Source: Cyanophora paradoxa CCMP329 (taxonomy: Eukaryota > Plantae > Glaucophyta). Taken from it: DNA of 64,000 nucleotides. The DNA lies in NCBI GenBank assembly GCA_004431415.1, contig QPMI01000631.1, forward strand, positions 19,560-83,559, written 5' to 3'. Under the pieces are notes generated by a model that saw only the letters and a program-made list of their open reading frames with translations, was not told the origin of the DNA and did not search any database. Made by a program: the position numbers and the translations under genes. Numbering within the stretch: position 1 is the first letter of the stretch; each line of letters opens with the position of its first letter. This document shows, one piece after another, positions 16,101-64,000 of this stretch.

Positions 16101-16193
16101 CCGCAGTGCTGGTGTCTAGAGACTGTGGCCGGTAATTCACCAAAAAAAAAAAATGCAGAGGCTGTGGCCGGTAATTCACCAAAAAAAAAAAAA
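13162..16193. mobile_element. Nested repeat: two inverted copies of an about 160-bp poly(A)-ended element, the left one split by a 2-kb insertion
   Basis: 15994-16153 is the reverse complement of 13162-13254 joined to 15268-15337. AACTA is duplicated at the break (13250-13254 and 15268-15272). An extra partial 3' copy lies at 16154-16193. Confidence 0.7.
13529..14400. repeat. Tandem repeat, 198-bp unit, about 4.5 progressively degenerate copies
   Basis: The unit starting GGGAAGCGGGAGGACAGACAGGT recurs at about 13529, 13727 and 13925, then degenerates. It is preceded by about 21-bp GGGGTGGCGAGGCGG repeats. Confidence 0.85.
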
Positions 16194-16335
16194 GACATGC
16201 ATGCACACCACCGGGGGGGGGGGGGGGGGGCTTCATCACGAGCGGGGTACTGAACTCTCGTTGTCTGGCGACAGTGCCGCGCGGCACGTATACGTATGCC
16301 GCGACTGTAGCGTGCAGCACGTGAGCGAGATATCG

Positions 16336-44296: not shown

Positions 44297-45066
44297 ATCC
44301 TCTCCGCGACCGCTGAATCGCCCGCACAGGAATTCGCGAGCACGTACGCCTTGAGTGCCTTGCGGCGTCTGCGCGTCGCCGTGGGCTCATGACGCGCGCG
44401 CCGTCCGCAGGGCGCCTGTCGTGGTTATGTTCGCCGGCTTCCTGCCGAATCTGCTGCTGCGGATGTGCGAGCAGGCGGCGAACGCGGACGGCCTCGTGAT
44501 CATCGGCTGGTCGGCCTTCTATCCGGCGGCCTTCGTCGCCGCGTGCCGCCTGATCCAAGGCGCCCTGCAGGTGCTATCCCGCTCGAATCCGGGCGCAGCG
44601 CGTGCTGATGCCTCCGCCCGCAGATCTTCGTGTTCGGCCTCTTCTCAGCCTTAACTTCGAATTCCTCGCGATCGGCTTCTCGTGCGCAGCGCCGCGCCTG
44701 CCGCGCGCCCGGCGCGCCCGGCGCGCGCGCGTATGCACGCCTCGATCGCCGACGTGCCGCCGCAGCGGGTACCGGAAGCGGGCGCTCGTGATCTGCGCGG
44801 CGGCCGGCGCCGCCTGCACGATCGGAGTCGCCTTCGTGCAGGTCCGACCCGAGCCCCGCCCGACCCGTCCCAGCCTCCCGGAATGCTGTCCGCGGTCCTG
44901 CGATTCTATAAACTATTAGAAGGAACTACTAGCTATAGCAGGCTTAGCCGGCCTGCCGAGGCCGCTCCTTAAAGCAACGCGCCCCTAGACCGCCCAAGAG
45001 CGCCCTGAACCGAACCGGTCCCGCAGGCCGAACAACTCTACTAGTACTGGCTCGTCGGAATCCTGC
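44297..45066 (+). pseudogene. Inverted partial duplicate of the Atg22-like gene (copy of about 41705-42426, introns retained)
   Basis: Near-identical reverse complement, including VVMFAGFLPNLLLRMCEQAANADGLV and intron sequence. It lacks the first exon and all downstream exons. Confidence 0.85.
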
Positions 45067-45171
45067 CGTCCAAGGCCCGCGGCGGTCCAACTCCGGAATT
45101 CCATCCCAGCAGGAGTTCAAGGTCCGAATGCCACCCCGCGGGAGTTGAAGCGCATTAACATAGAATAGGAG

Positions 45172-45245
45172 CGCCCTGGGTGGGGCTCGAACCCACGACC
45201 ATTAGGTTAAAAGCCTAACGCTCGTACCAACTGAGCTACCAGGGC
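45172..45245 (-). tRNA. tRNA-Lys(UUU)
   Basis: GCCCTGGTAGCTCAGTTGGTACGAGCGTTAGGCTTTTAACCTAATGGTCGTGGGTTCGAGCCCCACCCAGGGCG folds into a full cloverleaf with anticodon TTT. Confidence 0.96.
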
Positions 45246-45507
45246 CGTCGGACCTCTGCCCGGTGGGCCCGACCGGTCCCGTTCTCCCCGCTGCACTCCG
45301 CCGACTCCGCGAGCGCTCCCGCCGCCCGGAGAGCGTTCCCGTCGCCCGTTGAGCGCTGGGCACCTGTCTTTCGCGCCGTGCACGCCCCGCTCCGCCCTGG
45401 CGCGGTGTGAGCCCGCGGAACGCTGACGGCCGGCCGCGAGACGGCGCGGCCCGGGGCGAGGCCGCGGAACGCGCTTCCACCGCTCCGGCAATCGTAGCAG
45501 CAGGGCA

Positions 45508-45680
45508 ATGCCGGCCAGCGGCGCGGAGGCGGCGGCCGCAGCGGCGCGGCTCGGCGACCTGCCCGACGAGCTCTTGCAGCGCGTCGCGACGCACCTCGGG
45601 CCCCTCTCGGCGCTCCCGCTGCTCTCCGTGAGCCGCAGGCTTCGCGGCGCCCTCGCCGGCGCGCCGTGCGCCATAGGCAG
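45508..45680 (+). pseudogene. 5' end of an F-box gene with no visible continuation before the viral block
   Basis: MPASGAE...LGDLPDELLQRVATHLGPLSALPLLSVSRRLR matches the F-box consensus LxDLPxELLxxIxxxL...VSRRxR. Confidence 0.6.
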
Positions 45681-46121
45681 ATCTAGATCTAGAGCTCGCG
45701 CTCGCCCAGCGAAAACGCGATGATTGCTAGCTGCAGCCACGGTTACGCACTATATATATGAGGGCCATCAATGGGCCAAACGCGAAAAGGCAACTCCGAG
45801 AGCTCGAGACTCGGAAGTGACGCTTGGATTGCGGAGGTTCTTATAACCGCCGCAACAGCTGTGGGGGTACCCCCTCCGAGGCTGGCGATCGCGGCGATCG
45901 CGACCCGATCGCGACCCTGGTGATCGCGACTTTCTCCCGATCGCGACCCTTTTCGATCGCGATTTCGAGATCGGGGGCATTTCTGCGATCGCGAGAAAGG
46001 AAAAATCGGAAAAGGCCGAAAAGTGCGTTTTTCACGCGTGAAATCGACCGAAAACGAGGGTTCGAATCCCGGGCCCGGATTTGGACTTGGGCAAAATCTC
46101 GGACTGAAATGGGAGAAAAAT

Positions 46122-46186
46122 GGGACCTGGGACTTGGGACTTGGGACTTGGACTTGGGACTTGGGACTTGGGAAGAGTTGGAATCA
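46122..46186 (+). repeat. (GGGACTT)7 array plus GGGAAGAGTTGGAATCA, copy 1
   Basis: Read directly; two units are variant. Confidence 0.9.
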
Positions 46187-46229
46187 GAGTCTGGACTCAA
46201 AACGGGGAAATTTTCGGAGGGGGAGAAAA

Positions 46230-46700
46230 ATGTCAGGCAATCTCTATTACGATTTCCCCTTTGAGTTGCATATGGCATTCGAGAGGCTGCGCGAGTTCTG
46301 GCGTTGGCACCTCACAGGACATGACATTCCCGACATAACACCAGAGCCCAACACACAGGGCGTGCTTGAAGTCATCCGTCAATATCCGCGTCGATTCAAT
46401 GAATGGATCGAGTTCCACGCAACGAACCGTTTCCAGAGTCTCCCCGAGGCCATACGCGAAAATTTCGTGAGGCTGGTGGGACCAGGCTACGACAACCCTA
46501 ACAATCATAGACCACGCCCAGCTGGCGTGACGCGCGAAGCTCGAGAAGACCGTAGACTTTTCCGCAGGGAATTGAGAGAGGATAGACGGAGGCTTTCAAT
46601 GGGGCTCCCGCAGATTGTGAGGGGGTACAGCCCGGATTACGAGACTTACCAAGAATTGTACGGCTTCGAAAATCCCTTTGAGAGGGTACTACCAGGGTGA
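46230..46700 (+). CDS. Hypothetical viral protein (156 aa)
   Basis: Intact intronless ORF MSGNLYYDFPFEL...ERVLPG with AAAAATG start context and upstream AAATTTTCG. Confidence 0.65.
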   Translation: MSGNLYYDFPFELHMAFERLREFWRWHLTGHDIPDITPEPNTQGVLEVIRQYPRRFNEWIEFHATNRFQSLPEAIRENFVRLVGPGYDNPNNHRPRPAGVTREAREDRRLFRRELREDRRRLSMGLPQIVRGYSPDYETYQELYGFENPFERVLPG

Positions 46701-47035
46701 GGGCCAGGGGGGCCCCTGAGGGTGTACCCCCATCCGAGACTCGACCTTCGGCGGACGCACTCGGGCAATTTCCGTCAGGCCGGCTCCTTTTTCTGTCTTC
46801 GGTCCAACGCTAAATTTGGCTTTTTCAGGCCAGTTGGCAACGTTTTCCGTTGCGAACTAGCCCAGGAAAAAATTCGCCCACAAAACCGCGGTCCGCCGCC
46901 ATTTTGCCTCACTCTTGAAACGGGTTCGCCGCCTTCTCTCAGCCCAAGGAAACCCTGCCTCTCCGAATTTTCACAAGTCCGCCCTCACAGTCACCTCACG
47001 TTTTGCCTTTGCTGATTTCTTTTCCCTTTGCGCAG

Positions 47036-48103
47036 ATGTCGATTCCCGCTGAGCTTGCCGAGGACTTCGCCTTTGTCCAAGCAACGTGGGCTAACTCCGG
47101 TGGCACTCAAGGGGCTACCCCTGAGATGGAGCAGCGCGCCGACGCTCTGGGGTACATCTACAATTATGCCATCTTACGCGCCACTGGCCCGAAGTGCAAC
47201 TTCTCCCCAAGTCCGCCTTCACGTCCAAGGCCAAGAAATCCAAGTCCAAGCAACCCAAGCCCGAGCCCCCGTCGACGTGCCCCCCGTCCCCGGCTGGGTC
47301 AAGACCGCCAACGGCTGGGGCGACCCCAAGCTTTTCGCCGAGTCTGCTGCCGAGACGCTCGCCTGGGCCTACCCCCCTCAAGTCTTCACGAATTACCCCC
47401 TCCGTCATCGTCGTCATCTGCCCCTCAGCCCGTCGCCGAGCCCGCCCCCGAGCCCGCCGATGACGCCAAGTCCGAGGCCTCTGACGTCGAGTCTGACATC
47501 AACGACTTCATCGACTTTGACGTGCCGATTCCATACGACTCTGAGTCGTCTTCTGACTCTGAAGGCGACAACGAAAACCCGACTCGCAAGCGCCGCATTA
47601 TCAAGACCAAGTCAATCGTCAAGAAGAAGTTCATGGAGACTACGTCATTCACCGACAACTCCGAGCGCGTCAAGGACCCCGCCAAGGCACACGAGAAGGA
47701 CTTGAAGCTCGGCGCCGGCATTGCCCGTTCTCGCGTGACGTCACACTACAGCGAGCGCCTGACTCAGCACGTCAAGACCATTGAGAAGCGCGTCCTCTGC
47801 AACGAGCTCCGCAAGGAGTTGGAGCGCAAGCGGCGCCACGAGCGCCTTGTCCAGTACCAGATCAACAAGGCGCGGATCGCCGAGCGCAAGCAGAAGGAGG
47901 CGGCCGAGCTCAAGGCGCGCATCGAGGCTCAGCAGCAGCGCGAGGCAGAGGCGGCAGCGGCCTTGGCGGCGCAGCGCGAGCGCGAGCGGCAGGACTTGGT
48001 GCAGGCAGCGCAGTCCCTTCCCCGCATTCCCCTTAAGTCGGCGCCCGAGGGCCTCATTGAGTTGGTTTCCGATGACGATGACTCTGACTTTGAGATGCTG
48101 TAA
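47036..48103 (+). CDS. Hypothetical acidic/coiled-coil protein with NLS-like stretch; probable compensating frameshifts near 47200-47400
   Basis: Long ORF with a D/E/S-rich tract, TRKRRIIK and a C-terminal coiled coil. ATG is directly preceded by a splice-acceptor-like TTTCCCTTTGCGCAG. Confidence 0.7.
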   Translation: MSIPAELAEDFAFVQATWANSGGTQGATPEMEQRADALGYIYNYAILRATGPKCNFSPSPPSRPRPRNPSPSNPSPSPRRRAPRPRLGQDRQRLGRPQAFRRVCCRDARLGLPPSSLHELPPPSSSSSAPQPVAEPAPEPADDAKSEASDVESDINDFIDFDVPIPYDSESSSDSEGDNENPTRKRRIIKTKSIVKKKFMETTSFTDNSERVKDPAKAHEKDLKLGAGIARSRVTSHYSERLTQHVKTIEKRVLCNELRKELERKRRHERLVQYQINKARIAERKQKEAAELKARIEAQQQREAEAAAALAAQRERERQDLVQAAQSLPRIPLKSAPEGLIELVSDDDDSDFEML

Positions 48104-48149
48104 ATAGTATTGCGTCATTCCATTGTACATACTTGTAAAAATTGGCCGA

Positions 48150-48925
48150 CTATTCAGTTACGACTTGGCGCGATCCTGGGACTTGGGACTTGGGACTTGG
48201 GACTTGGGACTTGGGACTTGGGACTTGGGAAGAGTTAGACTCAATTAGTTCGGCCATGAGGGTAGAGCCCACGACCATTCCAGAGGTAGGCATTCCGGCG
48301 ATGTTGTTGTACAATTTGAAAGTGAATTTCGTGAAGAGGAGCCGGGGCCAGACCTGGGTACGGGGATTCGAGGCGCCGTATGAATAATCGGTACCCGAGG
48401 CGCCGCCCGTGGTGGCATTCGTCATCATCTCCTTTGCGGTCATCTTCCAGAGGTTGTACATCTCAAAGGGAACGGCCTGCGTGGTCTTGTGTGTGGCATC
48501 GATGAGGGCGCCATCTAAATGCGTTTTGATGTTCGGATTCGCACCATTCCCGAATTTGCGAGTGAGGGCGGTGTTAGCGGTGAACTTGAGTTCGAGCACG
48601 CGAATGGCGGGCCGATCAGGCACAGAGGGCTCTATCTTTTTCAGGAGGCCCGAGAGCCAGAGCGCCTCCGCCTCATCCGCGCTCACGCCCGAGTCGATGT
48701 CAAAGTACACGTACACGGAGCAGGAGGCGGGATTCTCGAAATCGTTGGAGGTGACGCGCAACATGACGGGATTCTGGACCCTCACGGTGAGCGGGGTGGC
48801 GTAGTTTCCGTCCCACTCCACCTTGTCCGTCCCTGCGTTGGCCACGTTCCAGCGTTGCCGTAGAAATCGGGGACGATCGAGCCGGCAGACACGGTCTTCA
48901 CGATGGTGGCCGAGGTGGTCGGCAT
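48150..48925 (-). CDS. Beta-rich putative virion protein, paralog B (frameshift near the 5' end)
   Basis: VRVQNPVMLRV, SADEAEALWLSGLLKKIEP, IRVLELKF and GSTLMAELIES align with the neighbouring gene. Confidence 0.6.
48178..48243 (+). repeat. (GGGACTT)7 array plus GGGAAGAGTTAGACTCA, copy 2
   Basis: Seven perfect heptamers with nearly the same tail as copy 1. Confidence 0.92.
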
Positions 48926-48948
48926 TTTGCGACCTCAAATGAGAAAGA

Positions 48949-49628
48949 TTATCCGTGAAAGAGGGTGATGTCGCCACCGATGTTCATGACGCGGGCCCCA
49001 GGCACAGAGTCAGCGTCGGTGCCGTACGCGTAGGAAATCGAGCACTCACGCAGCTCCGCGCAGAGGCTGGCGCCCGTGCTGAAGTGGGGCTGGTCGGCGG
49101 CGTAGGAGAGGGGGAAGACCTGGAACCTGAAAAAGGTGAAGGGGAAGCGGGGTAGAGTCGAGCCGCGTGGGTTGCCGCCCGTGTAGAGGGCCCCAGGGTC
49201 GCGGGACTTGGATTGAATTTCGTGAAGAGCACGTCGCCCTTGAGCGTACCCCTCATCTGGTAAGTTCCCGTACCCGGAAGATTCGAAGAACTGGGGTACC
49301 GGTTCACGGTGGGGCCGTACCCCGTCTCCCTGAACTTGACCTCGAGACAGCGCAAGACGTTGGCAGTGGCCGTGGCAGGTGCCACCTTTTTCACGAGTCC
49401 TGATTCGTGCAGCAGCTCGATAACCTCTGCGCTGAGGCTCAGAGGGTCGAAGAAGAGCTGGTAGGAATAAATCTTGGGCGTGGCGTAGGCGTTCTGAACG
49501 ACCTGAATCACGACGGGATTCTGCAGAAAGACGTCGACGTAACTGCCGGAGGGTATGCGTGCGAAATCCTTGGTGTTGTTGCCAACGTCAAGTGAGCCGC
49601 TGAGGGTCTGGTACCAGTTGGAAGTCAT
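48949..49628 (-). CDS. Beta-rich putative virion protein, paralog A (frameshifted)
   Basis: VFLQNPVVIQV, SAEVIELLHESGLVKKVAP, LRCLEVKF, then in a shifted frame FTFFRFQVF...GASLCAELRECS. Confidence 0.6.
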
Positions 49629-49667
49629 TTACCCCGGGGCAGATATTTTTTCGGATCGTAGAGGAAA

Positions 49668-51802
49668 ATGCCCCGCTTCGTATTCGTGAAAAAGCAGGTG
49701 GTGCAGGCTCCGCAGTATGGCGTGGAGCCGATCTCGCTGACTGTGGGCAGGCCCCAGGTGCGATCGGGCTCCGTGCTCAACAACGGGAACAGTACGTACG
49801 GCTTTCAGCTGAACTGGGTCGCGGTCACCAACGCCGTCAAGTACAAGGTGTACAGGGCGACCAGCATCAACGGCCCCTGGGATCTCGTGGCCACGGTGAA
49901 TGCGCCAACCGTCACCTACACGGACTCTCCTTTAGTTTGGGGGCCCAGCGACTCTACCGCGTGGCGGCGGTTCGCGAACAGGGCAGCAGCAGCACGGGCT
50001 CTGATGGCAAAGCCCCGCCCACAACCTACGCACAGTCGCTTCTCTACACCCACGAGGGTGCCATGAGCAATTACATTCTCTTCCAAGGCATAGGCGGCTT
50101 CAGCCCGCAGATCGAAGCCTACACCACGCTCACGACCGCCACGGCCCAGACCTACGGCGATTTTATTGCCGGGGCGGCCCCGCGTCTTCGGGCTTCCCGA
50201 AACCCGCCATAGTCGTCACAATCAACTGGGTGGCCATGGAGGGCGCGGACTCGATTCGAATTTACAGGAACGGTACGCCAATCGGATTTGCGAGCAGTGC
50301 CCTGTCTACCTCGTACATTGACGATAGCACTGCTCTTACGTGGGGCACGGAATACTCTTACCAGGTGGCCGGCATCGTGGGCGGTGTCGAATACGACAAG
50401 TCCGATCCGCTCCTGGTCTGGACTATGCCAAACGCCCCCACGAACGTGACGGCATCAGCACCCAACGACCAGCAGCAGCCTGTCAGCCTCAGCTGGACTG
50501 CGTCCACGGGAGCGACGGGATACAAGATTTACAGAGACGGGGCCTACCTCACAGACTCCGCGACCAACTCCTACAGCGACACGACCACCGTCTGGGGTAC
50601 AGGGTACGAGTACCAGATCTCCGCGACGAACACGGGAGGGGAGGGGCCGAAGAGTATTGCGGCGTACGTCACCACGGACCCGGGGGCGCCCACTGGGCTC
50701 ACTGCAACCCCGCGGCGGGGCAGCACAGCCTGTTGTGCTCGAGTGGTCGGTGCCGGTGACGGGCGTCACCGTCTCCTACAACATCTACAGGGGTGGCGTG
50801 TTCCTTGCCAGCGACACGAGCAGCCCCTTTTCGGACACAACGACCGTTTACGGAACCACTTACACTTACACCATCAAGGGCGTCAACCAGATCGGCGAGG
50901 AAGGCCCTCAGTCCTCGTCTGCCAGTGCAACAACTGCAAACGCTCCTGTTTTGGGTACATTCTCCTACACCGGGGCCGACCAGACTTTCGTAGTACCAAC
51001 GGGGACTGTGGCTGTGCGTGTCATCGTATGGGCGGCCGGGGGTGGAGGCGGAGAACGCGCAGGTACGGGGGTCCGTGGAGGCGCGGGTGCTTGCGTAGTT
51101 GGTACATTGGCTGTGTCCTCGGGGAGACGCTCATCCTTGTTGTTGGATGCGGCGGCCCAAAGGGTGTATCGGGGACTGCCACTGCTACCGTCTACGGAGG
51201 TGGTGGAAGGGGCTGGAGCCATAGCGTCGATCCGGAGTACAAAAACGGCGCCGGTGGTGGTCGTTCTGCAATTCAGCGCGTTGCAGGGACCGACTTGGTT
51301 GTTGCAGGGCCGGAGGTGGGGGTACATGTGATTCGAATGGCGGCGGGGGAGTAGGCGGGGGTTGACCGGTGGTGCGGCTGGGTTGGTTGGAGTAACCGGA
51401 GAGATACCGGCTCAAGGAGGCACCCAAACCGCTGGCGGAGCCGGTGTTGTGGCCTCAGGGGCCAGGCCCAGCAACCCGGGAACTTTGCGCCAAGGTGGAG
51501 AGACTGGGCCTGATTCAAGCGGCTACAGGTTCGGTGGTGGTGGTGGTGGTGGTTACTTCGGTGGAGGCTCTGGGTCCAGCAGGAGCGGAGTGTCAGAGAA
51601 CCCAATAGCAAGAATGTTTGGAGGTGGCGGTGGCTCGAGCTACATAGGAAACTTGACGGATGCTACGGTGTATCCTGGGTCCGGCCAGGTGGCAGGAAAT
51701 AGCGGAGACGCTCACTACGCAGCAGGCATTGGTAGGGGCGGCAACGGTGGCTCGTCTTTCAGCGACGGTGGCAACGGTCGAATTGTGATACTCGCGGTGT
51801 AG
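49668..51802 (+). CDS. Fibronectin type III repeat protein with a C-terminal glycine-rich domain (fibre/spike-like), several frameshifts
   Basis: Four FN3-like units (LNWVAVTNAVKYKVYR, LSWTASTGATGYKIYRDG...YEYQISATNTGGEG), then FSYTGADQTFVVPTG...WAAGGGG and GGGGGGYFGGGSG...GGGGGSSY...GGNGRIVI. Confidence 0.8.
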
Positions 51803-51822
51803 TTATTCCTAGTTGTTCCAGA

Positions 51823-52881
51823 TCAGCTCGCCAGTGCCGCTACCTGGTCTTTGAGAGTTTGAACTTCTTGTGAAAGTTCCTGAATTGCCTTCAACGACAG
51901 GGAAATGAGCCTGTCGTAGTTTACCCCGAGAAATCCATCCGCGTTCTCGAAAACGAGACTCGGGAAGACGCCTTGGACTTCCTGTGCGATGAGACCGTAA
52001 TCCGTTTTCGAACCCCCGAGGATGTGTTCTTCCAGGTGAACGACACGGGATTCAGCTGCAGCAGAAGAGGGAGAATGCCCGACATGCTCGCGACATTTTC
52101 TTTCAGGCGGCTATCGCTCGACGAGTTTGTCAGGTATCCTTGAGCATCCGAATAAACGGCTCGGTTTCCATCGCCCGTGAGCGTCGAGACGATGAGCCGA
52201 CCCGTGATGCCAACGCCGACGGTTCCGCACAGCAGTCGTTCGGTGCCGTTGTTTCTCAAGGATAGACCAGAGCTGACGCTTCCGCTATCAACGATTGAAG
52301 TGTTTGCTATGCTTAGGCCATTAGTAGGGCCTTCGATTGCCGAGGTAAATAGAGTACCTGTAACACCAACGCCAAGAGTCCCACAGAGGAGTCTATCGTT
52401 TTCGTTGTACTTTATAGCTACGCCTGAACCACCGCCATTTATGTACGGTGACGTTCCGGTAATTTGCAGCTTATCGTCCAATGTAACGATGCCCGCCAAG
52501 TTTGAAGCCCCGCTCACCCTAAGCCCCCCACCACGTTTGCTCCGCCTCCTTGCACATACAGAGCCGCATTCCCCTCCCCGTTCACAGTCCCATTAAAGGT
52601 CACCTGATTCGTGGTGTACCCGCTCCCGTCCCAGGCCCCGTTCGTGACGGTGAGCCTCTGCGTCCTCACGCGCCCCGGCACGGCCGACCCGCCCTCCCGC
52701 GTGCGCATCTTGTCGCAGCGCAGCTCGCCGACGCGGACGAGGTCGGCCTCGGAAAAGGGACGGCCGTGGCGTTGTAGGGGGCCTCGGTGGCCTGGTTTCC
52801 GAGGGTGGTCTCCTTAATCGTGTGATCGCCCTTGTGATTCACGCTGGCAGCATAGGTAAATAGAGGGACAGCGACCGACAT
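51823..52881 (-). CDS. Fibre protein with C-terminal peptidase S74 intramolecular chaperone domain (frameshifted)
   Basis: SSSDSRLKENV...LLQLNPVSFTWK, then YGLIAQEVQGVFPSLV...GVNYDRLISLSLKAIQEL. Internal repeated (ND/TE)RLLCGT(L/V)GVG(V/I)TG shaft units. Confidence 0.85.
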
Positions 52882-52905
52882 TTTTGGATTGCATCAGAAA
52901 ATCGA

Positions 52906-55900
52906 TTACATAAGCAGCTTGCCGATCGCGGTCCAATGAATAAAAAGCTGGACAATTTGGGTGGGCGTGACCGTCATTCTGGGTTGGAATCTCACTTTAA
53001 CTGTAAAGCCAGTGTGACTCACCGCCGTGACGTTGGCCCCGTAGAAATCGACATCCGTGCTGCCGCCGGGATTGATGTCGAACGAGGGGGTTACGTTAAT
53101 AACCGGCGTTGGGTTTGCTTGGGTCCCCAGTCCGCCTCCAGTGTCGTACGCCTGTCCGAATGTAATGTTGAACGTCACCGTGTATGTTGAATTGATGTTA
53201 AACTCCGTGTACGCAGCGTAGGAGTGGAAGGACGTGCCGTGCGTTATGTACGCATCCATGTTCACGTTTCTGTGCCCGTGGCTGGTGAGCGAGTACTCTG
53301 TGTGACTGTGCGTAGAGGGTGGGAAGGAAGTGGGTCGGTCGATGACATTATCCCAGTACACATTGTGACTGTGTGTAGAGGGGGGAAGGTAAGTGGCTTG
53401 CCCGTTACGTTGTCCCAATCCACGGAGATGTTCGTCAAGTCCGGGGCCGTCCAGTCGCTGATCTGAGAGATGGTGTGCTGGTGGTCTGCGTGGGGATACG
53501 TACTCGGCTTCCCCGTGATGCTATCCCACGCCCACGTTGTTGGTATCACGGGTATCGTCGGCCTCCCGCTGAGATCTGCATACGCCCCGTGTGTGCCACC
53601 GTCGCCAGCTGCGGCACGGCAACGCCCACGGTGCTCACGGCCTGGCTCGCCCCCGGCGCCATGTGCCACTCGTAGTTCTGCGATGCAAACACGGGCTGGC
53701 CTGGCTCGGGCGCCCAGTACTCGATGCCTTTGGCGATCTTCTTGGTGTATGGTGCTGCAGGCCTGTCAACCAATTTATCGACGTAGGCCTTGGGTACCAG
53801 CCAGTTTGCCTTGGGGCTCTGCGAATTGATCCCGTTGTCTATGAAGGCCCGTAATTCCTGAAGGCCTCGGCCTCCCACCAATCCTGCATGCGGAAGGTCC
53901 CGGGAATCTCGAGGCGCGAGTTGGCGTCCGCCAGGCGGGCCACCTGCGCCCCTCCGTTCGACGAGACGCCCGAGTGACGGATGGCCGAGCCGAATTCGCG
54001 CCTTAGGGCTTCGATGTGATTGATCCTGTTGAGGCCCTCCTGGTAGACGGCAATTAAGACGCGCTTCCGCCCCTTGGTCTCCTCCTTTATCATCTGCTTC
54101 AGGTCGCGCATAAGTCGACTCAGGGCGAGCGAAGTCGACCGAAGCCCTCCTGCATTTTAACGGTGAGCTGGGAGAGGAAGAGCACGGTCGCGCGATCGAT
54201 TTCGAGCAGGGTCTTCTGGTCCTTGGGGGTACGGTAATCGTTGATGCTGTTGTCGAGCGCGCGAATGAAGGCCTGCAGCTCCTTCGGCTCCTTGATTTCG
54301 TTTAACCGCAGCTCCTGGGCCAAGAGCGAGGCCATTTCGCGCGCCTCCGAGGGGTCGTACACACCCAAAAATCCGGAGCCCAGCTCGCCTCCAGCCGATT
54401 AATTCGGTTGCGCAGCTGGCTCGCCTCGTCGCCCCACGTCTCGACGCCCCAGTCGTAGATCTGTTGCGAGAGCTCCGCGATGAACTGTATGGTGTCGGTC
54501 GCCCAGTCGACGGGGTACTTGAAAAAGTTCTTCACGATTTCTTCCGCGCTGCGCCCGTTGATGATATCCACGATCACCTGCGCGATGGCGCCCGCGAGGA
54601 TGGACAGGCCAAGTCCGCCCACCGTGCCGATCCTCATTTTCGTGAGGGCGCTCAGGGCGGACGACATGCCCGTCTGAAGGCCAAAAGAGCCGACCGTCAT
54701 GATCATCTGATCGCGGAACGTATCGAAGAACTCGGCCTCCCTATCTTGCCCTGCGAGAGCGCCTGGTAGGCCGAGAGCAGGCCGCCGGCCGTCGCCAGCC
54801 CAAGGCCCGCCGCCGCCGCGCCCGCCCGCCGCATGGCCCGCGAGCCCGTACCCCCGAGCCCGGCGCCCACCAAGTCGATGCCCGCCCCCTGAAATAAATC
54901 GGCTGCCCCGAAAGACATGCCGTCGTTGTTCGCCGTACCCGCCGCCGAGAAGAGCGTCTCGGCGCTGAGGGCCTCCTTGGCCACCCCGGGCCGCCTTGCC
55001 CTCGGCGCCCCAGGTACGCGTCGCGCTGCTCTTTGGTGGTGAATCGCTCGAGGTCGAAATCGGCGAGGGCGTCGGCGGTGGCGCGGTTCCAGTCGCCGTA
55101 GGGCATGAGGGCGTTGCGCAAAATAACGTCCGAGTCGCCCATCACGCGCCTGTCGAGCGTCTGAAACACGCCCTCGGAGGGCAGGCGGGCGGTGCCCGGG
55201 CGCATCTCCTCCACGGAAACGTCGTCCCTCTCCGCGAGTGTGATGTCGTCTGGGCTGGCCAAGCCGACGCCCGCGCCCTCATCGGCGTACGCCCTTCCCT
55301 TCGTTTTAATATTTGATTGGCCTCCCGTTTCAATGCTTGGTACTCTGTCTCTACCTTGGTCTTTCTTGCCTCTTCCTCTGCCGCCTTGCGCTCTGCGATC
55401 TTCCGCCTCTGCTCTTCTATCTCGGCGTTGCGTCTCGCCGCGTTCTCCTTCGCCTGCTGCTTCCGCTCTTCAATCACCCTGTTTGCGTACTCCTTGTCCG
55501 CTTGGGCCTTTCTGTAGCGCTCCTCGATCTGACTCTTGCCTCGTCTCCTCTCTTCCTTAGATCGCCCATGAATGCCGTCGTATCTATGTGAATCTTGTAT
55601 TTGGCGGGTGGGTGCTCACGTTTGAAGGCCTCCAGATCGCGCACCATGGCATCGTACTGCGCGAGCCCCTCCGCTGGAATGATGGCTCTTCGCATTTCCC
55701 AAAATTTGCTCAGCTTGCCCACGTAATCGACCATGGAGAGGTACGCGCTCTGTGCGCCCGCGCTCACCGTTTTCGGATTGGCTCGCAGCTCTGCCACAAA
55801 CTTTCCCTTTTGCATCCGGTACAGTGACCATTCGAGGGCTCCCGCCATAGGCTCACTTCCGTCCGCAGTTCGCGGTGCATCTCCTCCACGTCGCCGTATG

Positions 55901-58086
55901 CTATCCAGATGGCATCGCTGATGGGCCTCTGAACAGCCTGACGCTCAAAGTTTTTCCACTTCTCATCGGCCATCTTTCTCCTCAGTTCTTCGGCGTCTTT
56001 CTGACCCCTTCCCGTCAGCTGATCCATAACGTAGCTAAAGTCGCGCATGTTCTCTTCCATGGCGCGGACCCTGTCCCCCGATGCATTTCCTTCTTTCAGT
56101 TTTTTGAGCTCCGAGCGGTAAAAATCCATCTGCGCCCCCTGAACGTCTCCAGTCGTCGCTTACGCTCCGCTACCTTCGCTCCTCCAGCCGTGCAAATTCC
56201 TCGTCTGATGCAGTTTGCATTGCCTTCAGTCGTTCCTCTTCTGTCTTGGCAGCTGCCTCCTCGTCCGCCTGCGCCGCTGCTCTAACGCGTCGAAGAGGGC
56301 CCTCTGATCCTCGAGCGTGAGGCCAATGAGCTCTTCCACCTGGTCGCTCCTACCCAGCCGCGCGAAGGCAGCCTCTCGGCGGCCGGCCTCGGATCGGGCC
56401 TCGGCGTCGTCTGCGTCTCGGCCGTCCCATGGGCGAGCGAGCCTCTGCCGTGGCCGCGTACTTGAGCAGCCTCTGTGCCAGCTCGTCCGCGTTGGCCTTG
56501 AATTTTTCGACTGCTCGTCCGCGCGCTCGCGGCCTCCTTTAAATTTTTGATTTCCTCCCGGAGCCTGTTCGCCTCCTGCACCGCCCCGTTTGCAGCTCTC
56601 CTGCCTTTCTCCTCGTTTCCTCTTCCTCTTCCAGCAGCTGCCTTCTCGTCTCTGCCTCCTTTTCCAATTTCTTCTTCCTATCCTCGATCTCTTTCCTCTG
56701 CGCCTCAAGCAGCTCGGTGCCTGCGGTCAGCGCTTCAATTTCCTGCAGCTTTTTCGCCTTGGCGGCTTCCCTTTGCTCGTTTATCCTCTTCAGCTCCTCC
56801 TCGGCGTCGAGTATCATTTTCGTGCGCTCTTCCGCGACCTGGCGCTCTGCCGACCTTAGCGCGGTGAGGGCGCTCTCTTCCTGCCTTTGCGCGTCTGTCA
56901 TCAGCTTGTTCGCTTCCGCCTTCTTCTCCGCGACCTCTGTCATTTCCTTGTCTTTCAGCTCGCTCCATTGCTTCTTTTCGTTCTCGAGTTTGTAGTACTC
57001 GCGCTGCGCGTCCTCGGTATCGAATTTAATGGGGGTCTCGCGTTCAGCTCGTCGATTTGCCTCACGAACCCCTTCCGATCCTTGTAGTATTTGATGCCGC
57101 CTACGATGAGGGCGCCCCCGAAGATGGCCGTTGAAGTGGCGAGGCCTGCTACCTTATCCATGCCCTCCCCGCCTGAGCCGCCGCCACCCGAGCCGCTGCT
57201 GCCCCCGCCCCCGCCCACTGGCGTGCCGCTGGAGCCCCTCCGCCCCCGTGCCTGTACCCCCACCCCCGGTGCCTGTACCCCACCCCGGTGCCTGTACCCC
57301 CACCTCCCGTGCTTCCACCACCCGTACCCCCACCCGGAATCGCACCCGGCACCTTGGGCCCGCCGATGATGTCGTCGTACAGGTGGCGGTGCGCCCAGTC
57401 CGTGATGTCGGCCTTCACGTGCGGGTGCTTGACGAGGGCGTACCTCTCGTCGTGGAAGTGGTCCTTCAGCGCCCAGTTCTGCGTCTTCGCCAGTCCGAGC
57501 GATCGGGGAGCACGTCGGGCGCCGTTGGGATGCGGCCCCCGCCGTCGTCTCCGGCGTCTCGCCCGTCCTGTCGGCGCTCAGGGCGCGGATGTTGACCTTG
57601 AAGTGGTCGAACCACGCGAAAAACTCCTCCCTGTCGCGCCTGTACTGCTCGGGCTCCATGCTCGGCAGCGCCTGGCGCTCCAGTAGATGTGGCGCAGGGG
57701 CCCGCGATGCGCTCGAGTGCGTTGTACCCGGGCCTCACGTCTCCCTCTGCCCCCTTTAGAGTCAGTTTCACGAGGTTCAGGGTGGCATCCTTTGCGGTGA
57801 CCGAGTTTGCGATTTTCACGTCGGCCGCCCTCTTGATAATGTTCCAGTCCACGCCCGTCTCGGTCGTCACGCCCCAGAGCCCCTTGATAATTGCGGTGAG
57901 GTCACCGTAATCGTCCAAGGTACCGACGGACGTCAGGAAATCGCTGTAGGTCGCGCCCTTGCGCAGCCTTATCTCATCCGCGTAAATTCCCCTCACGCTC
58001 AGGCTCCCGTCTATCGCGAAGGCACCGTTCAGCACCTCGTCCGGATTCGGGATGGCCATGCGCCAGGGGTCGTCGAGCATCGACAT
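52906..58086 (-). CDS. Very large (about 1,700 aa if joined) coiled-coil plus phage-tail-fibre-like protein, broken into many frames
   Basis: Abutting same-strand coding fragments: Gly linker, long E/K/R coiled coil, hydrophobic Gly/Ala helices, WDSITGKPSTYP/WDNVTGKPLTFPPSTHSH repeats and a C-terminal TGFTV...IHWTAIG domain. It could instead be 2-3 genes. Confidence 0.6.
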
Positions 58087-58111
58087 TTTATCCGCGAGAG
58101 AGAAAAATTAA

Positions 58112-58582
58112 CTAATGCTCCGCGTCCCACGTCCACTTCAGCTTGCCGCTCACCTCGCCCGTTGTCCAGCGGCCCACGGGCACCTGCAGAAAACGTCGGC
58201 GTAGGGTAATCGGCCTGATAGTGATCTGCTCGTCACGCAGCCAGCGGTAGGCCTCGGAGGCGTCGCGAATCTTTGGCTCCCAGTATTCCCCACCCGTGCC
58301 GTTCGGCAGCGAGTACCCCTCCCTTGCTACCCGTACCCTGTAAAAGTGATCGCCCATTAGCGTGTCTACCCCCTGTACTCGAATTCTACGATTAAGGCCA
58401 AGTCCTGCCATGCGCTCTCACCGAGACGGATGTGACTGAGGCTGTGCAGCAGCCCGTATTTAATTGGACCAGAGGCGGTTACAAGATCGACTCTGTAAGT
58501 AAGGGCGAGGGGTAGCCAGGCACGCCCGTAAAGGTACGCGTCTTGACGCCCGAGCCTTTCGCGGGAATATGATCAGGCGCAT
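58112..58582 (-). CDS. Hypothetical viral protein (frameshifted)
   Basis: ORF 58112-58411 plus upstream coding sequence from TTAAATG at 58582, preceded by the ATTTTCG motif. Confidence 0.45.
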
Positions 58583-58615
58583 TTAAGGGGGCCTGCGAAA
58601 ATCTAGTCGGCCTAC

Positions 58616-59057
58616 TTAGCGTAGGCCCAGAGGCCGAAGTTCTTGACGATGAAGGCGTTGTTCTTCTTGGTGGCGCCCGTGATGTCGGTGAAGCGCACGC
58701 GCAGCTCCTGGAATTTGTCGTACGCGACGTAATTCGGGCGCACGGCCATGGGCACCTCGAACCAGTAAAGGATGGTGTTTTCCAGGCGTCGTGGCCCACG
58801 TCGGAATCACGACCTTGTTGATGCACGCGTTCACGTTCGAGATGGTCGTGACGTTCAAATCGGGCACGTCCATCAGCAGCACGTTTACGGTTTTCGCGGC
58901 GGTGGGGTCCGGAATCGCGGTCGTGTCCAGCTCCAGGTAGACTCCCTTGATCTGCAGCGTGTCGATGTCGGAGGGGATCTGGTTCAGCCTGAGGCGCCAG
59001 AAGCCTCGGAATCCTGCGTCTCTCGTTCGACTGGACGTAGAGGTTAACGCAGGACAT
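58616..59057 (-). CDS. Putative minor capsid/penton (single jelly-roll) protein, frameshifted
   Basis: Joined frames give IDTLQIKGVYLE...VLLMDVPDLNVTTISN...KVVIP...ILYWFEVP...FQELRVRFTDITG, resembling the penton pattern of Polinton-like and NCLDV viruses. Confidence 0.5.
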
Positions 59058-59060
59058 TAT

Positions 59061-59270
59061 TTAGGCCTTAGGAGGGGCTGAGAAATTAAGCCCGCTTCGG
59101 TCCATGTTCAGGAGGTGGGCCCACGAAGTAGTAGCCCGCGAATTGTGCGAGAGGATCCGCAGCAGGTAGTAGCGCGCGGGCGACATGTACGCAACGGCGC
59201 CGAGGGTCAGGAGGCTGCCCAGGTAGCGCGAATCGCTGAGGATGTTGTCGAGGCTCGGCAGGGACATCAT
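59061..59270 (-). CDS. Small hydrophobic viral protein
   Basis: 69-aa ORF with YLGSLLTLGAVAYM and the shared upstream motif. Confidence 0.45.
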   Translation of the reverse strand: MMSLPSLDNILSDSRYLGSLLTLGAVAYMSPARYYLLRILSHNSRATTSWAHLLNMDRSGLNFSAPPKA

Positions 59271-59298
59271 TCTCGGGTTTAAGGCCCCTTTCAGAAAT

Positions 59299-59653
59299 TT
59301 ACTTGGGCATGAAGAAATTCCTGACGCGCTCTCCCTCCTCGTGCAGCGCCCACTGCAGCCGGTCGATGACGGCGGCCATCACGGGCGGGCTCGCGGCGGG
59401 GTTTTTCGCGTACGCCCTGGCGTCCTCTGCATCTGGGGTGGTACTGCTCGACCCGCTTGGCGTAGCTCGCGATGGCGCGGCGGGTGCACCGATCCAGGTC
59501 AGCCGCCATTTCCGCCGGTGCCTTCGGCTGCTGCTGCTTCTTTCGCGCGTAAGTCCTAAGAAGCCAAGGGTAGGCCGTGGTGCTGCTGCTGGTGCTGGTG
59601 TTGGTGGACGATTGATCCTCGGCGCTGGGGGCTGGTGTCGCGGGAGTCTCCAT
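59299..59653 (-). CDS. Hypothetical viral protein (frameshifted)
   Basis: METPATPAP...AADLDRCTRRAIASY, then AVIDRLQWALHEEGERVRNFFMPK-stop; shared upstream motif. Confidence 0.45.
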
Positions 59654-59664
59654 TTCCCATGTTC

Positions 59665-59930
59665 TCTAGAAAAAAACGCGTACCGGTCTGCGTCATCTGA
59701 ATGTCCACGTGGTGCGGGCCTATGTTCTGGACGCTCTCGCGCCTCTGCTCGGGCGGGGGCTCGGGCTCGGGCTGCCCGCGGCGCACGACCCTAAGGGCCG
59801 CCGCCTTCAGGGCGCCCAGCACGGTGTTGGGGCGCACTCGCTCCGTGCCGCCCAGCAGCTCGGAAATCAGGAAGAGCGCGCCGCATACGACGGTGATGAC
59901 GTCCGAGTGGGTGCATTCCCCCTGGAACAT
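59665..59930 (-). CDS. Small viral membrane protein; end uncertain
   Basis: VITVVCGALFLISELLG...PNTVLGAL resembles small LxxSExL...N membrane proteins of viruses. Confidence 0.5.
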
Positions 59931-59939
59931 CTTGCGGGC

Positions 59940-61892
59940 GCGTCAGATTAATTAACCGCGGCCCTGCCCTTCCGCGCCCCTTGCCCTTTCCGCGCCCGCG
60001 GCCCAGCCCTCCGATCTCGGCGGCCTGCGGCGCGAAGCGCGGATCGTCCGAGGGGGCGGACTCCGTCTGGAAGATGGAGAAGAGGTAGCCGTCCGTGTTG
60101 TTGTCGGTGTTATTCTGTTGCGCGCGTGCGACCACTGCTTCAGCAGGTCGCGCCGCTGCGTCTCGGGCAGCGTCTTCGTGAGGTACTCCTGCAGCCGCCC
60201 GCCGTAATTTTCCTCCGGAATCAGCTCGGCGAGGATGGTGGGCGGGTCTTTTCCCATGCCGATTCTCCCCGGTTCAGGTCGTCGATGAGCTCCGCGTTCT
60301 GCAGGATTCTCTCCGCGTCCTGCCCGCCTCTTGCTGCAGCTGCTCCACCAGCCTCCTTCCGGCCTCCGCGAATTTGCCGGCCAGAATTTCGCCCAGCCTC
60401 TCGTAGACGGTTGTCGTACCCGGCTCCTTTTCCTTGAGTACCACGACCCAATCGTACTTTGCCCAGAGCACCTGCAGGTTCGATATGTGGTCGATCGTGA
60501 CGAGCACGTGGGCGTGCAAGCAGCCGTCGGTCGGCCCCACTTCCACGCCCCCCTGCACGCGAATTCCGATGATGGCGTTTGCAAAGGTATCGTCCTTGTA
60601 CTTGCCGTCCTCTTCCTTTAAATTAAATCGAATGAACTTGTAGAATTCGGCGTCCGAGAGCACCTGGGCCAGGCTGCCGCGGAAGGCCTCCACCTCGAAT
60701 TCTCTCGCGGCGCCCAGCCTCTTGTGTGTGTTGAAGAGCACCCAGTACCGCGACTGGCGCGCCTGTCGAATATCGTAGCGCGTGCTGCCGTCGCGTTCTT
60801 TTTGTTGAGGATGAAAACCGAGCGGCCCGTCTCGTTGATTTCGGTGATGACCTTTTCGAGCGCCTCCAGCCCGTTGGCCCTCGCGGCCTGCAGCCCCGTT
60901 TTCGTCTTTTCTATGTTCTCCTCACTCCGTCGATTTCCTTAGGATCTCGTCGATCCTGCTCATGTCGGGCGCGGCGATATCCTGCTTCCTAATTTTCTCC
61001 TGGCCCGAACCCGGCGCGATGGTCGACTGGCCGAAGGCGGCGGCCATATCCTTGGCGGATTTCGAGGCCTTCGTCTTCGGCCGCCCAGCACCGTCTGCGC
61101 CATCTGATTCTGCGCCTGCGCCGACACGGCCGTGGTGTCGCCCCTCTTGCGCCGCTGCAGGCCCAAATTCGCGAGGAGGCCGCGATCGTCCAGGAATCGG
61201 TAGCACTGCATGCAGAGCCACGAGTTCTTCGGGTACACCGGGGCAGCTGCGCGGGCTTCTTGTCTTTGATCGGGGGTACTTGTTTTTGGCCTTTGCGCCT
61301 TCGCCCACTCGTTTGCCTTGTCGACCTTTTTCGCGTAATCGGCGTACGCGCCTCCTTCTTCGCGGTCGCCTCCGCGACGGCCTCCGCGGTGCCCTTTTTG
61401 CGGGTATGCTCGGGATTTCGTACATGAGGCGCAGGCAGCGGTAGCAGACGGGCGGCGATTTTTGGGCGCTCTGGAAGGCGCGCGGGATGGCCCGCAGGCG
61501 CTCCTCGGGCAGCGCGTCGTAGAACTGCTTGCTGTGGATGCTCCAGAACGTGGCATCTTTGTAGTAGGCGTCGAGCGCAGTGGTTTCCGGTACCTGCACG
61601 CGCGTGATCGGATCCTCGAGAATTTTAACTACATCCGGGATGCCCTTCTGCATTTCGATGATCTGCCGTTTTCGCCTCGACCAGCACGGCCCGCTTTGGA
61701 ATTTCGACTATGGGCATATCGAGCTCGTTGTATTTCTTTCCTTCATCTTTCCCCCGCTCCCTTTGGCTTCGGCTCATCCTCGGCCTCTCTCTTCACTCTC
61801 CTCTGATTCCGATTCTGGCTTCTCCTCTTCTCGTACGCGACCCTCGGACTCGCTCTCCGGCTTCTTCTTACGGCCTCGGCGCTTCGGAGCAT
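59940..61892 (-). CDS. Long HUH-superfamily endonuclease with N-terminal basic/acidic region and two CxxC pairs (frameshifted)
   Basis: Motif I YWVLFNTHK, motif II EVGPTDGCLHAHVLVTIDH, motif III LQEYLTK. Upstream frames carry CYRC and CMQC and an N-terminal PKRRGRKKK. Confidence 0.75.
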
Positions 61893-61913
61893 ATTATTGG
61901 CTACAAGAAAAAA

Positions 61914-62744
61914 TTACACGAGCTTTACAGCACCCGTCTCGAGGGCCTCTACCGTCTTCGTAATGTACAGCTGCAGCAGATCCTAAGGTTGTCTGCGGTA
62001 GCAATTTACGTCTACGTGCATCTGCCTGGCGGTTCTCGCTTCCTGTAGCCCGTCTCCTTGCCCGTCCACTGCATGCCGAGGGCGTCCTTTCTCCGTATCG
62101 GGCCACCGCCGTCTTCTGGTACTCCTCTCCAACCAGTCGTCCTTGTAAAAATTCGGCAGGCCGCCCTGCCCTCCGTCGCATGAAATCGATGAGGAAATCC
62201 GACGCCCGCTTGCCGTCGAATTGCAGCCGCGAGTAGTGCACCAGCGTGAGCAGGATGTGCGCGTGAGCGCCCCGACCGCGGCCGTACTCGATGCCGATGT
62301 TCGCGTTGCCCCTCTCCACGTGCGTGTCGTACATGTCCGATTTAAAATCGAGACCCTTGGGTTCGCCTTGTCCGCGTATACCCCATCTTTATGCACTTTG
62401 CAGCTGCCTGTCGTCGTAGAAAAGGGCCTCCAGCCCCTGTGAAAGGCGTCTTGAACCTTGGAGCCTTCTCCCTGCTCCGGGGCTTGTAGTTGGTCTGGAT
62501 GGTGATCATAAATTCGACTCGCGCTGCGGCCTCTGCTCGACTACCCCGGACGGCGTCGTGAAGGTCTTGGTGGCGCGCGTCCAGCACTTCTGGAACCACG
62601 TCTTGCGGGTGCCAGCACCTTGTCTTGATGTTGCCCACCACGATGTGAGTCTCTACCCGGAGCGGCCGGAGGCGTCATGCGGAGGTGCGGGTTCGGGCGC
62701 GGGTTGCCTGTTTGCTGCTACGCCCTCGCGATGAGGTTGAGCAT
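61914..62744 (-). CDS. Short HUH-superfamily endonuclease (frameshifted)
   Basis: Motif I FMITIQTNYK, motif II IEYGRGRGAHAHILLTLVHYSRLQFD, motif III LQLYITK. Confidence 0.78.
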
Positions 62745-62813
62745 GTCAGACCAAGGCTAGAAAATTTTCCGAGGCTAGGGTGAGCTCCACGTGGGCCCGG
62801 GTACGCCTGCGCC

Positions 62814-62890
62814 TCACCTGAGCGATCACCTGAGCCTCACATGAATCACCTGAGCAACGCCTTCTGTCACATCTGCGGGCTCACCTCGCT
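62814..62890. promoter_or_regulatory. Iteron-like TCACCTGAGC repeats between divergent HUH and VLTF3 genes
   Basis: Three exact TCACCTGAGC copies plus the variants TCACATGAA, TCACATCTGC and TCACCTCGC. Confidence 0.5.
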
Positions 62891-62968
62891 GGGACCCACT
62901 CGATTGCGTGAAGCCAGTTTGCTACTTCTGCAAGGGCGTAGCTCAGCTGCAGTACGAGGACTCGAGGA

Positions 62969-63785
62969 ATGGCAGACTCTGGCGAAATCGATCTCCTCCT
63001 CCGAACTTTGAGCAGATCCAGCGCTACGGCGCCATCCTTCACGACGAGGGGACCAGACTTCGACACTCCGGCACCGTACCCGCCGCCCGCGCCCATCACC
63101 AGTTCCTACCTTGGAGCGGAGAGCGCCCCCGCAACGCAACCGTCGCACCCAAGGCCCAAGGCGAAGCGCTTCCCCTGCGGAAATTGCGGCTCTACCCGCC
63201 TCGTTGGTGTTCACCTGGATGGGGATCTGGTTTGCCAAGGCTGCGGTCTGGTCCTGGATCTTTATTATCCGGACCATCAACCCCTGGCTGTCAGCGAAAT
63301 CCACAGCAACTACCTGCGCAAGTACCACGTATCTGAGCGACTTAAGCAGCACTGCCTGGAGGATTCTCCTGTACCCGAGGACGTGCTGGCAGCTATTGCG
63401 AGGCGCATGGCAGGGAAGGAGTGGAGCAAAGACAATATCCGCCAAGTTCTCCGGGCTCTGAAGCAGCAGAAGTACATCGAGCGCTGGGCGCAGATCAAGT
63501 GGCGCATCACGGGCGAGCGCCCGCCTCCGATGAGCGCGGAGGATATGGACCGGGTGCAGGAGATGTTCGCCCTGGTGGAGGTCCCCTTCAGCATTTTCAA
63601 GTCGCAGGGTAGGGAATATGCTCAACTACAACTACGTTTTCAGGCAGATTTTCGTGCTGCTAGATTTGCCCCAGCACCTCCCCTACTTTCCCTTGCTCAA
63701 GAGCAGGCAGAAACTCTCGGAGTTAGATTCGATTTGGAACAGGATCTGCGAGTACAACGACTGGCATTTCTTTCCTACTCTTTAG
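62969..63785 (+). CDS. VLTF3: Viral late transcription factor 3-like (VLTF3/poxvirus A2 family), one frameshift near 63613
   Basis: Zn ribbon CGNC...LVCQGCG, YLRKYHVSERLKQ, IRQVLRALKQQKYIE, then NMLNYNYVFRQIFVLL...YFPLLKSRQKLSELDSIWNRIC...WHFFPTL. Confidence 0.92.
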
Positions 63786-64000
63786 CTACTCTTTAGTGAT
63801 CGCGGCGGCCTTCCGCTCGAGCGCCTGCTTGATTCCGAAGCTCGCGCTGGTAGCCTTGATTAGCATGTTCGTCTGCCCGTGTGTAAATCAGGATGAACAT
63901 AATTCCGCCGGTGGGCGTCGTCGAAAAAACTTGAGGGTGAGCACGTATTTCGAGAAGCAGGCCGAGGAGAGGCCGTTGACGGCGACTTGCGCGGCGAGCT
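63786..64000 (-). CDS. 3' end of a further viral gene, truncated by the window edge
   Basis: Coding-like frames ending FGIKQALERKAAAITKE-stop, abutting the VLTF3 stop. Confidence 0.4.

Follow-up and report, generated by a model that had tools for sequence, protein, structure and literature searches.

What do two adjacent HUH endonuclease genes do for a virus-like element in an algal genome, and how do viruses that have no known integrase reach many copies in such a genome? The locus that raises these questions lies in a 64,000-nt stretch of the Cyanophora paradoxa CCMP329 contig QPMI01000631.1 (the window; coordinates count from its start), where a first-pass annotation had described two intact tandem HUH endonucleases and suspected a mriyavirus. 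We lean, with modest confidence, towards a reading in which the short HUH protein initiates rolling-circle replication and the long HUH protein serves as an accessory second nickase for termination or resolution, in a gamadvirus-like mriyavirus. Published sources are cited for their accessible text. The argument draws on the following features:

45700..64000, no strand: endogenous virus-like element, visible part (left end approximate, boundary inferred; right part beyond the window)
59952..61892, minus: long HUH gene (sister models encode ~658 aa); missing bases break its frame in the window
60174..60747, minus: HUH core of the long gene (YWVLFNTH 60747-60724, HAH 60516-60508, YLTK 60185-60174)
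61203..61446, minus: two CxxC motifs of the long gene (CYRC 61446-61435 and CMQC 61214-61203, ~80 residues between)
near 61890, minus: basic start of the long gene, PKRRGRKKK-type (six-frame translation)
61914..62744, minus: short HUH endonuclease gene (sister models encode 285 aa); its frame, too, is broken in the window by missing bases
62512-62489, 62265-62257 and 61967-61956, minus: short-gene motifs FMITIQTN, HAH and YITK (six-frame translation)
62745..62968, no strand: intergenic region between the short HUH and VLTF3 genes, candidate origin or promoter
62969..63796, plus: VLTF3-like late transcription factor, TFIIB-type zinc ribbon (Pfam PF04947, 27.6 bits, cut-off 25)

About 18 kb of the element is visible before it runs off the right end of the window. 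Its GC content is 0.599, against 0.652 to the left, and it contains no long G/C runs, against 27 there. Left of about 45.7 kb lies eukaryotic, repeat-rich DNA, in which the last host-like features before the element are a tRNA-Lys(TTT) gene (45171-45245) and an F-box exon (45508-45672). The exon of this 45171-45672 segment seems to end at the composition change, and the element was possibly inserted beside the tRNA gene or into the F-box gene. Elsewhere in the host DNA, an imperfect inverted repeat at 41723-45042 (arms of ~700 nt, 86-98% complementary, around a 1.9 kb A+T-richer core) is possibly a non-autonomous transposon, and exons at 8852-11550, 16120-16980 and 29225-29758 give matches to HNOBA/guanylate cyclase/phosphodiesterase, BTB and lactate/malate dehydrogenase. 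Near the left end of the element, between 46,000 and 48,300, a G-rich heptamer forms two arrays of ~7.7 copies, some 2 kb from each other and similar in their flanks, which could possibly be a terminal or integration signal. The endogenous gamadvirus Phaglo-G has short tandem repeats at its flanks (10.1101/2022.07.28.501842). An origin of the arrays as host telomere repeats found no support in print, the words 'telomer' and 'viral' being absent from the accessible text of PMC6704402.

The VLTF3-like protein is 33% identical to VLTF3-like ORFs of IMG/VR relatives and is, by its sequence, a marker of Nucleocytoviricota and mriyaviruses, as expected for Mriyaviricetes. Together with the sister accessions from Cyanophora paradoxa described below, it rules out a bacterial or plasmid origin. 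Mriyaviricetes are further characterized by a 35-45 kb genome with a helicase and with neither DNA polymerase nor integrase; in 124 frameshifted ORF pieces from 41.5-63.8 kb, Pfam gave no match to any of these three. No integrase family matched the frameshifted ORF pieces of at least 100 aa in the visible ~18 kb, and capsid, packaging ATPase and helicase genes were not found in the window. A fibre-like cluster at 50005-53900 contains fn3 repeats with a glycine-rich region, a gene bearing a Peptidase_S74 chaperone and a third gene that has tail-like repeats and matches H-lectin weakly (E 0.026); PMC12220804 mentions such a protein, combining phage-tail repeats with an H-lectin domain, in a PLV of C. 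paradoxa. Judging by eye from the translation, two tandem beta-rich paralogous genes and one minor-capsid-like gene lie at 48153-49628 and 58619-59056, and an ESM Atlas score of 0.78 lends the minor-capsid-like candidate no support.

Both HUH genes are on the minus strand, and the long gene starts 21 nt past the stop of the short gene. As in the HUH superfamily (Y1), motif II reads His-hydrophobic-His, being HAH in both genes, and motif III follows Y-x2-3-K (YITK in the short gene, YLTK in the long). Every motif named in the first-pass annotation was thus recovered on the stated strand, but the description 'intact' fails for the window itself, where the motifs of each gene sit in different frames and no single ORF holds them all. 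The long protein is built from a basic NLS-like and acidic start, a split CxxC..CxxC, a coiled helix, a C-terminal HUH domain and an RG-rich tail; the NLS-like start and the CxxC pair had been noticed earlier and are seen both in six-frame translation and in whole sister models. From their sequence, CYRC and CMQC likely form a single split zinc site. Pfam found no helicase domain fused to either HUH protein, which bears out the earlier observation and rules out a fused helicase.

The frameshifts are most likely assembly error. Relative to a sister protein, the short gene has 27 bases missing, none extra and one mismatched residue of 285, while residues 1-620 of the long gene have 31 bases missing, none extra and three mismatches. 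Part of the window is contained in 20 of 24 listed sequencing runs, all bearing the label of a single organism; 14 hold about half of its words, and short-read contigs were compared from four (three DNA and one possibly RNA, which covers 62825-63800 only). For each of the three DNA runs, a single contig covers most of the long gene without substitutions (gaps 21, 27 and 32), the contigs being longer than the window sequence at each gap and free of substitutions over ~2 kb. Missing-base counts derived from the proteins and from the read gaps are 21 and 21 at 59.9-61.8 kb, 11 and 11 at 61933-62311, and 8 and 6 at 62282-62573. Losses without substitutions fit a long-read consensus error rather than decay. 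In two of the DNA runs, a contig of low depth also connects 63005 to 62551 through 8 letters and represents a rearranged copy elsewhere in the family.

That this copy is instead a decayed fossil, with real frameshifts and neither protein made, strikes us as very improbable. Such decay would account for the many breaks of both genes in the window, and PMC12344493 reports methylated giant-virus regions in C. paradoxa, with viral genes of this alga methylated and silent. Short-read contigs also merge and average over near-identical copies, so they do not prove this one copy whole. However, every break is a loss of bases and substitutions are almost absent, a pattern that differs from neutral decay; other contigs carry whole models of both genes; and silence leaves the coding content of genes unchanged. 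The first-pass annotation would have given way had the Tyr motifs fallen out of frame after polishing, whereas short-read contigs and sister models keep them in frame.

The sister copies come from three protein searches, which returned 30 clusters (29 EukProt gene models and one ENA assembly) whose accessions name Cyanophora paradoxa. There are 56 gene models on 39 contigs, 17 of which carry the adjacent pair (a count of models, uncorrected for assembly redundancy), and the element is likely integrated in dozens of copies in this alga. Whole models measure 280-285 aa for the short protein and 657-676 aa for the long. Although not demonstrable from the window alone, the fusion of the CxxC region to the HUH domain is displayed by P0023, which has 658 aa and 96% identity to the window piece, and by P0024, with 676 aa; these whole models rule out two separate genes in the 'long' region. 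In a further model, P0051 (868 aa), the two HUH proteins form a single chain, which is likely an artefact of gene prediction at a frameshift.

Two sequence types are present. The window's type combines a short protein of 285 aa with a long one of 657-658 aa, and the second a short protein of 280 aa with a long one of 676 aa. Marker-peptide typing of 14 pairs gave 12 concordant and two mixed, the latter suggesting recombination. Between the two long types, identity is 90% over the HUH core and 56-57% over the N-terminal region, a difference that constraint on the nuclease would produce. Among sister models that span motifs II to III, HAH is kept in 15 of 16 long and 22 of 23 short proteins, Y-x-x-K in all 16 long and YITK in all 23 short ones. 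Read depth over the short gene is ~3-4x that over this long allele, in line with two long types, although contig depth is a poor measure of copy number.

Beyond this alga, a profile of six sequences was searched against 1.84 billion proteins and returned 420 at E<=0.001, the best 150 of which were analysed. The lowest E values, 1e-17 among other short forms and 3e-12 among giant long forms, establish sequence kinship with gamadvirus HUH proteins. Pfam, NCBIfam and PHROGs provide neither a family name nor a transposase match for either protein. A PDB sequence search found nothing below E 0.2 for the HUH proteins, and ESM Atlas matches of 0.76-0.78 fall below the useful range. Pattern scans of viral contigs (four single proteins, one alignment) and of metagenome contigs turned up no close relatives. 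P0060/P0061 and P0062/P0074 have longest contigs of matching length (8,181 and 4,240), a hint, though no demonstration, that the compact pair is found jointly elsewhere too.

The best 150 of 420 comprise fragments, short forms (~220-290 aa), giant forms whose HUH domain is C-terminal (1,500-1,900 aa), and compact long forms; among the matches listed, three compact metagenomic forms (613, 724 and 611 aa) align with the Cyanophora long protein over most of its length. The E-x-G..H-x-H cutting pattern is carried by 139 of 144 aligned domains from this set, and the other five were dropped. At positions that played no part in this selection, the 139 retain D (138/139), H (139/139), S (126/139), Y (136/138) and K (132/137), so that conservation of the HUH motifs exceeds chance. 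Within the same best 150, 32 of 35 non-Cyanophora long forms have two separated CxxC motifs ahead of the HUH domain, two of the three misses looking like 5'-cut fragments, and no CxxC of any kind occurs in 82 short forms.

Gene order is shared as well. The short gene followed by the long gene on one strand, with a gap of 20-39 nt, is found at 8 of 16 IMG/VR loci; four others end too soon to tell and four have the short gene alone. The window therefore contains the gamadvirus pair, a short HUH protein next to a larger one with a C-terminal HUH domain. Both pair-bearing records that could be searched (2/2) encode an A32 packaging ATPase and gave no tyrosine recombinase or rve match. ORFs of the 16 relative loci match only HUH, VLTF3 and one fn3 piece in the window, a comparison whose sensitivity is lowered by frameshifts and partial loci and which, for ten gamadvirus-specific PEV proteins, comes down to these same matches.

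We then placed the two proteins in a tree of 64 of the 139 sequences (LG+G4, no mixture model). Two compact forms are grouped with the Cyanophora long proteins at 98/80, and the long forms as a whole come together at 88/73. On the short side, the Cyanophora proteins cluster with three environmental sequences at 100/95 and fall outside a clade, supported at 95/97, that contains the other short genes. AU tests leave all three histories standing (p 0.07, 0.35 and 0.25), among them, at p 0.07, a separate duplication in the Cyanophora-type lineage; the CxxC segments score 5-10 bits against profiles of the giant forms. Architecture and gene order make orthology with the gamadvirus genes likely; the tree does not prove it.

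AlphaFold models of the two proteins (mean pLDDT 54 and 63) have an alpha/beta, ferredoxin-like core, with pLDDT mostly 80-92 over residues 381-550 of the long model, and place motif III on helices H259-283 and H570-582. The sole match of both models at E<=0.001 is one viral structure of 793 residues (E 8e-9 and 1.5e-8), which, as a guess from its accession, may be half of a Pleurochrysis virus HUH_long. Foldseek gave no PDB match to an HUH protein at E<=0.001 for the short model. SIRV1 ORF119 (2x3g) is among the top PDB rows, at Z 6.8 for the long model and 6.1, tied with unrelated ferredoxin-like folds, and 7szx scores Z 5.7 and 6.4; no PDB row reaches Z>=8. A predicted short-long complex scored 0.00 with alignments unused, which is no evidence for or against an interaction.

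The short HUH and VLTF3 genes are head to head, and TCACCTGAGC occurs in three exact copies in the region between them, at 62814, 62826 and 62846. A 9-mer occurring three times was seen in 10 of 20,000 shuffles of 62745-62968, and the repeats (62814-62855) are a candidate, putative binding site, not a shown origin. The region folds no better than its shuffles (z -0.71). A triple 9-mer ahead of the short gene was seen in 1 of 15 relative loci, so that the repeats do not amount to a family trait. A separate upstream motif (A/T, then a T-run, then C) stands 10-45 nt before many start codons at 48.9-62.8 kb of the window and in the relative loci L001-L016. With a pattern chosen post hoc, it precedes 84 of 213 main ORFs of relatives against a 4% background and 7 of 13 window starts checked against 8%. 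In the window, both HUH genes and several virion-like genes have it upstream, as do 8 of 8 long genes of relatives. By sequence, it is likely a shared mriyavirus promoter element.

How might the pair work? In HUH chemistry, histidines bind a metal, a tyrosine makes a 5'-phosphotyrosine bond and a second tyrosine ends the round. In the reading we prefer, the short protein would nick the viral origin, prime a host polymerase and start rolling-circle replication. Each protein would supply one catalytic tyrosine to form the 5'-phosphotyrosine bond, its HUH histidines binding metal. Ending a round would require a second tyrosine, which the long protein could provide, thereby terminating the round and releasing unit-length genomes. 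Its basic start would bring it to the nucleus and its CxxC region would bind DNA. A separate gene beyond the window would encode the helicase and, as proposed for mriyaviruses, copying would fall to host polymerase. Integration would then be a side effect of nicked intermediates and host repair, with no dedicated step.

Published gene tables are consistent with unequal roles. All mriyaviruses encode an HUH nuclease, and gamadviruses add the duplicate HUH_long with a C-terminal HUH domain, the rest of which the original paper calls uncharacterized (10.1101/2024.02.29.582850). Since the short HUH is present in 20 of 21 gamadvirus rows of the PMC11253617 table and HUH_long in 15, being absent from six, the short gene looks essential and the long gene accessory. 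The division of labour suggested in the first-pass annotation is plausible; its further proposal, that the HUH pair explains endogenisation without an integrase, we treat as a guess. Against the preferred reading stand a tree that leaves orthology unfixed, PDB HUH matches tied with unrelated folds, and a window with no capsid, ATPase or helicase gene.

Could the long protein itself be the integrase of the element? It would then be a zinc-finger HUH enzyme, similar to Y1 or rolling-circle transposases, that inserts the viral genome while the short protein replicates it. We consider this unlikely, if deserving of weight, and rate as slightly less likely again the fuller version in which the compact HUH_long is a zinc-finger HUH integrase that spread the element to dozens of sites by a strand transfer resembling that of rolling-circle transposases, with its short paralog as initiator. 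IS91-type and Helitron enzymes combine a zinc finger with an HUH domain, the build proposed here for the long protein; in our alignment each domain has one conserved Tyr rather than the two of those enzymes, which lowers the case for membership but not the chance of a like function. Dozens of near-identical copies (the 56 models on 39 contigs and 17 adjacent pairs) are more than accidental insertion easily explains and count against integration as a side effect, although a survey reads such insertions as mainly accidental (10.1101/2025.04.19.649669). Mriyaviruses are described as without integration genes, yet they include endogenous forms (10.64898/2026.06.19.733378), and neither of the two pair-bearing records searched offered a recombinase in its place. 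In the PMC11253617 table, the long gene is dispensable in the six rows noted above and is listed for endogenous Phaglo-G, but one Pleurochrysis endemic virus row is without it. Most carriers of the long gene are, moreover, metagenomic contigs with no sign of integration, and a true integrase could sit in the part of the element outside the window.

A comparably slim chance attaches to a late role for both nucleases, which would not start replication but act on genome ends, nicking and rejoining them to resolve concatemers or hairpin-like termini for packaging, as has been proposed for the rudivirus Rep. SIRV1 ORF119 has the highest sequence identity of the listed PDB rows for both models (17% and 23%) and also appears among the structural matches of the published analysis (10.1101/2024.02.29.582850), but our structural match is tied with unrelated folds. 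The T-run motif, chosen post hoc, is shared by both HUH genes and virion-like genes and may mark a late class. A RuvC resolvase for concatemers is present in most mriyaviruses, and primase activity has been lost in most (10.1101/2024.02.29.582850); the latter argues for a nick-primed start, as in the preferred rolling-circle reading, and against late end-processing.

Mriyaviricetes regions are reported in a Glaucocystophyceae assembly (10.1101/2025.04.19.649669); they are probably this virus family, and the figures or supplements of that survey may describe this element. The accessible texts of PMC10120064 and PMC6704402 contain nothing on it, and 'Cyanophora' does not occur in the table of PMC11253617. 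In a literature search that reached few subscription journals, neither a compact HUH_long nor its CxxC pair nor HUH-driven integration of mriyaviruses turned up. Here, both genes are present in a cultured alga in many near-identical and apparently whole copies, which fall into two sequence types with mosaics, and the compact long protein is a stripped-down form that exposes the conserved parts, the split CxxC pair and the nuclease. This makes it testable whether mriyaviruses replicate by rolling circle and how viruses lacking a known integrase reach many copies in algal genomes. If the integrase reading were true, the long protein would be the first mriyavirus integration enzyme, in a culturable glaucophyte.

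Among known systems, the HUH fold would probably be shared with the SIRV1 ORF119 Rep (2x3g), the parvovirus NS1/Rep nuclease and IS200/IS605 TnpA. This likeness comes with no sequence-level match, no fused SF3 helicase and scores tied with unrelated ferredoxin-like folds. The single HUH protein of Yaraviridae (Yaravirus gene 27) belongs to the same nuclease family and has the same motifs (10.1101/2024.02.29.582850), whereas the yaravirus rows examined in the PMC11253617 table are without HUH_long. The Zora and VC218 mriyavirus-like groups are also small Nucleocytoviricota-like viruses, some with an HUH gene, but they often carry rve or tyrosine integrases, and the accessible text describes no long second HUH for them (10.64898/2026.06.19.733378). 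With the capsid gene absent from the window, the element could conceivably belong to these groups rather than be gamadvirus-like.

The closest counterpart is the Gamadviridae HUH/HUH_long pair (KY346835_11 and KY346835_10; Yutin et al. 2024, 10.1101/2024.02.29.582850), which has the same order and strand and a gap of ~20-40 nt. Both pairs share the C-terminal HUH domain of the long protein, a single-Tyr motif III, E-x-G..H-x-H..H-x-S, the split upstream CxxC and a VLTF3 gene in the genome. The suspicion of a mriyavirus was well founded, and the pair, being the published gamadvirus duplication, is not unexpected. Despite this agreement, the Cyanophora long protein measures ~660 aa, less than half the size in print and against 1,591-2,114 aa in the eight IMG/VR pair loci examined, and has HAH where the giant long forms have HFH. 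Its VLTF3 gene is directly head to head with the short gene, rather than ~9 kb away, the short gene falls outside the clade of other short genes, and many copies are endogenous. The HUH and HUH_long pair itself is already published; the compact long form, its compact relatives and the conservation of the CxxC pair are new details.
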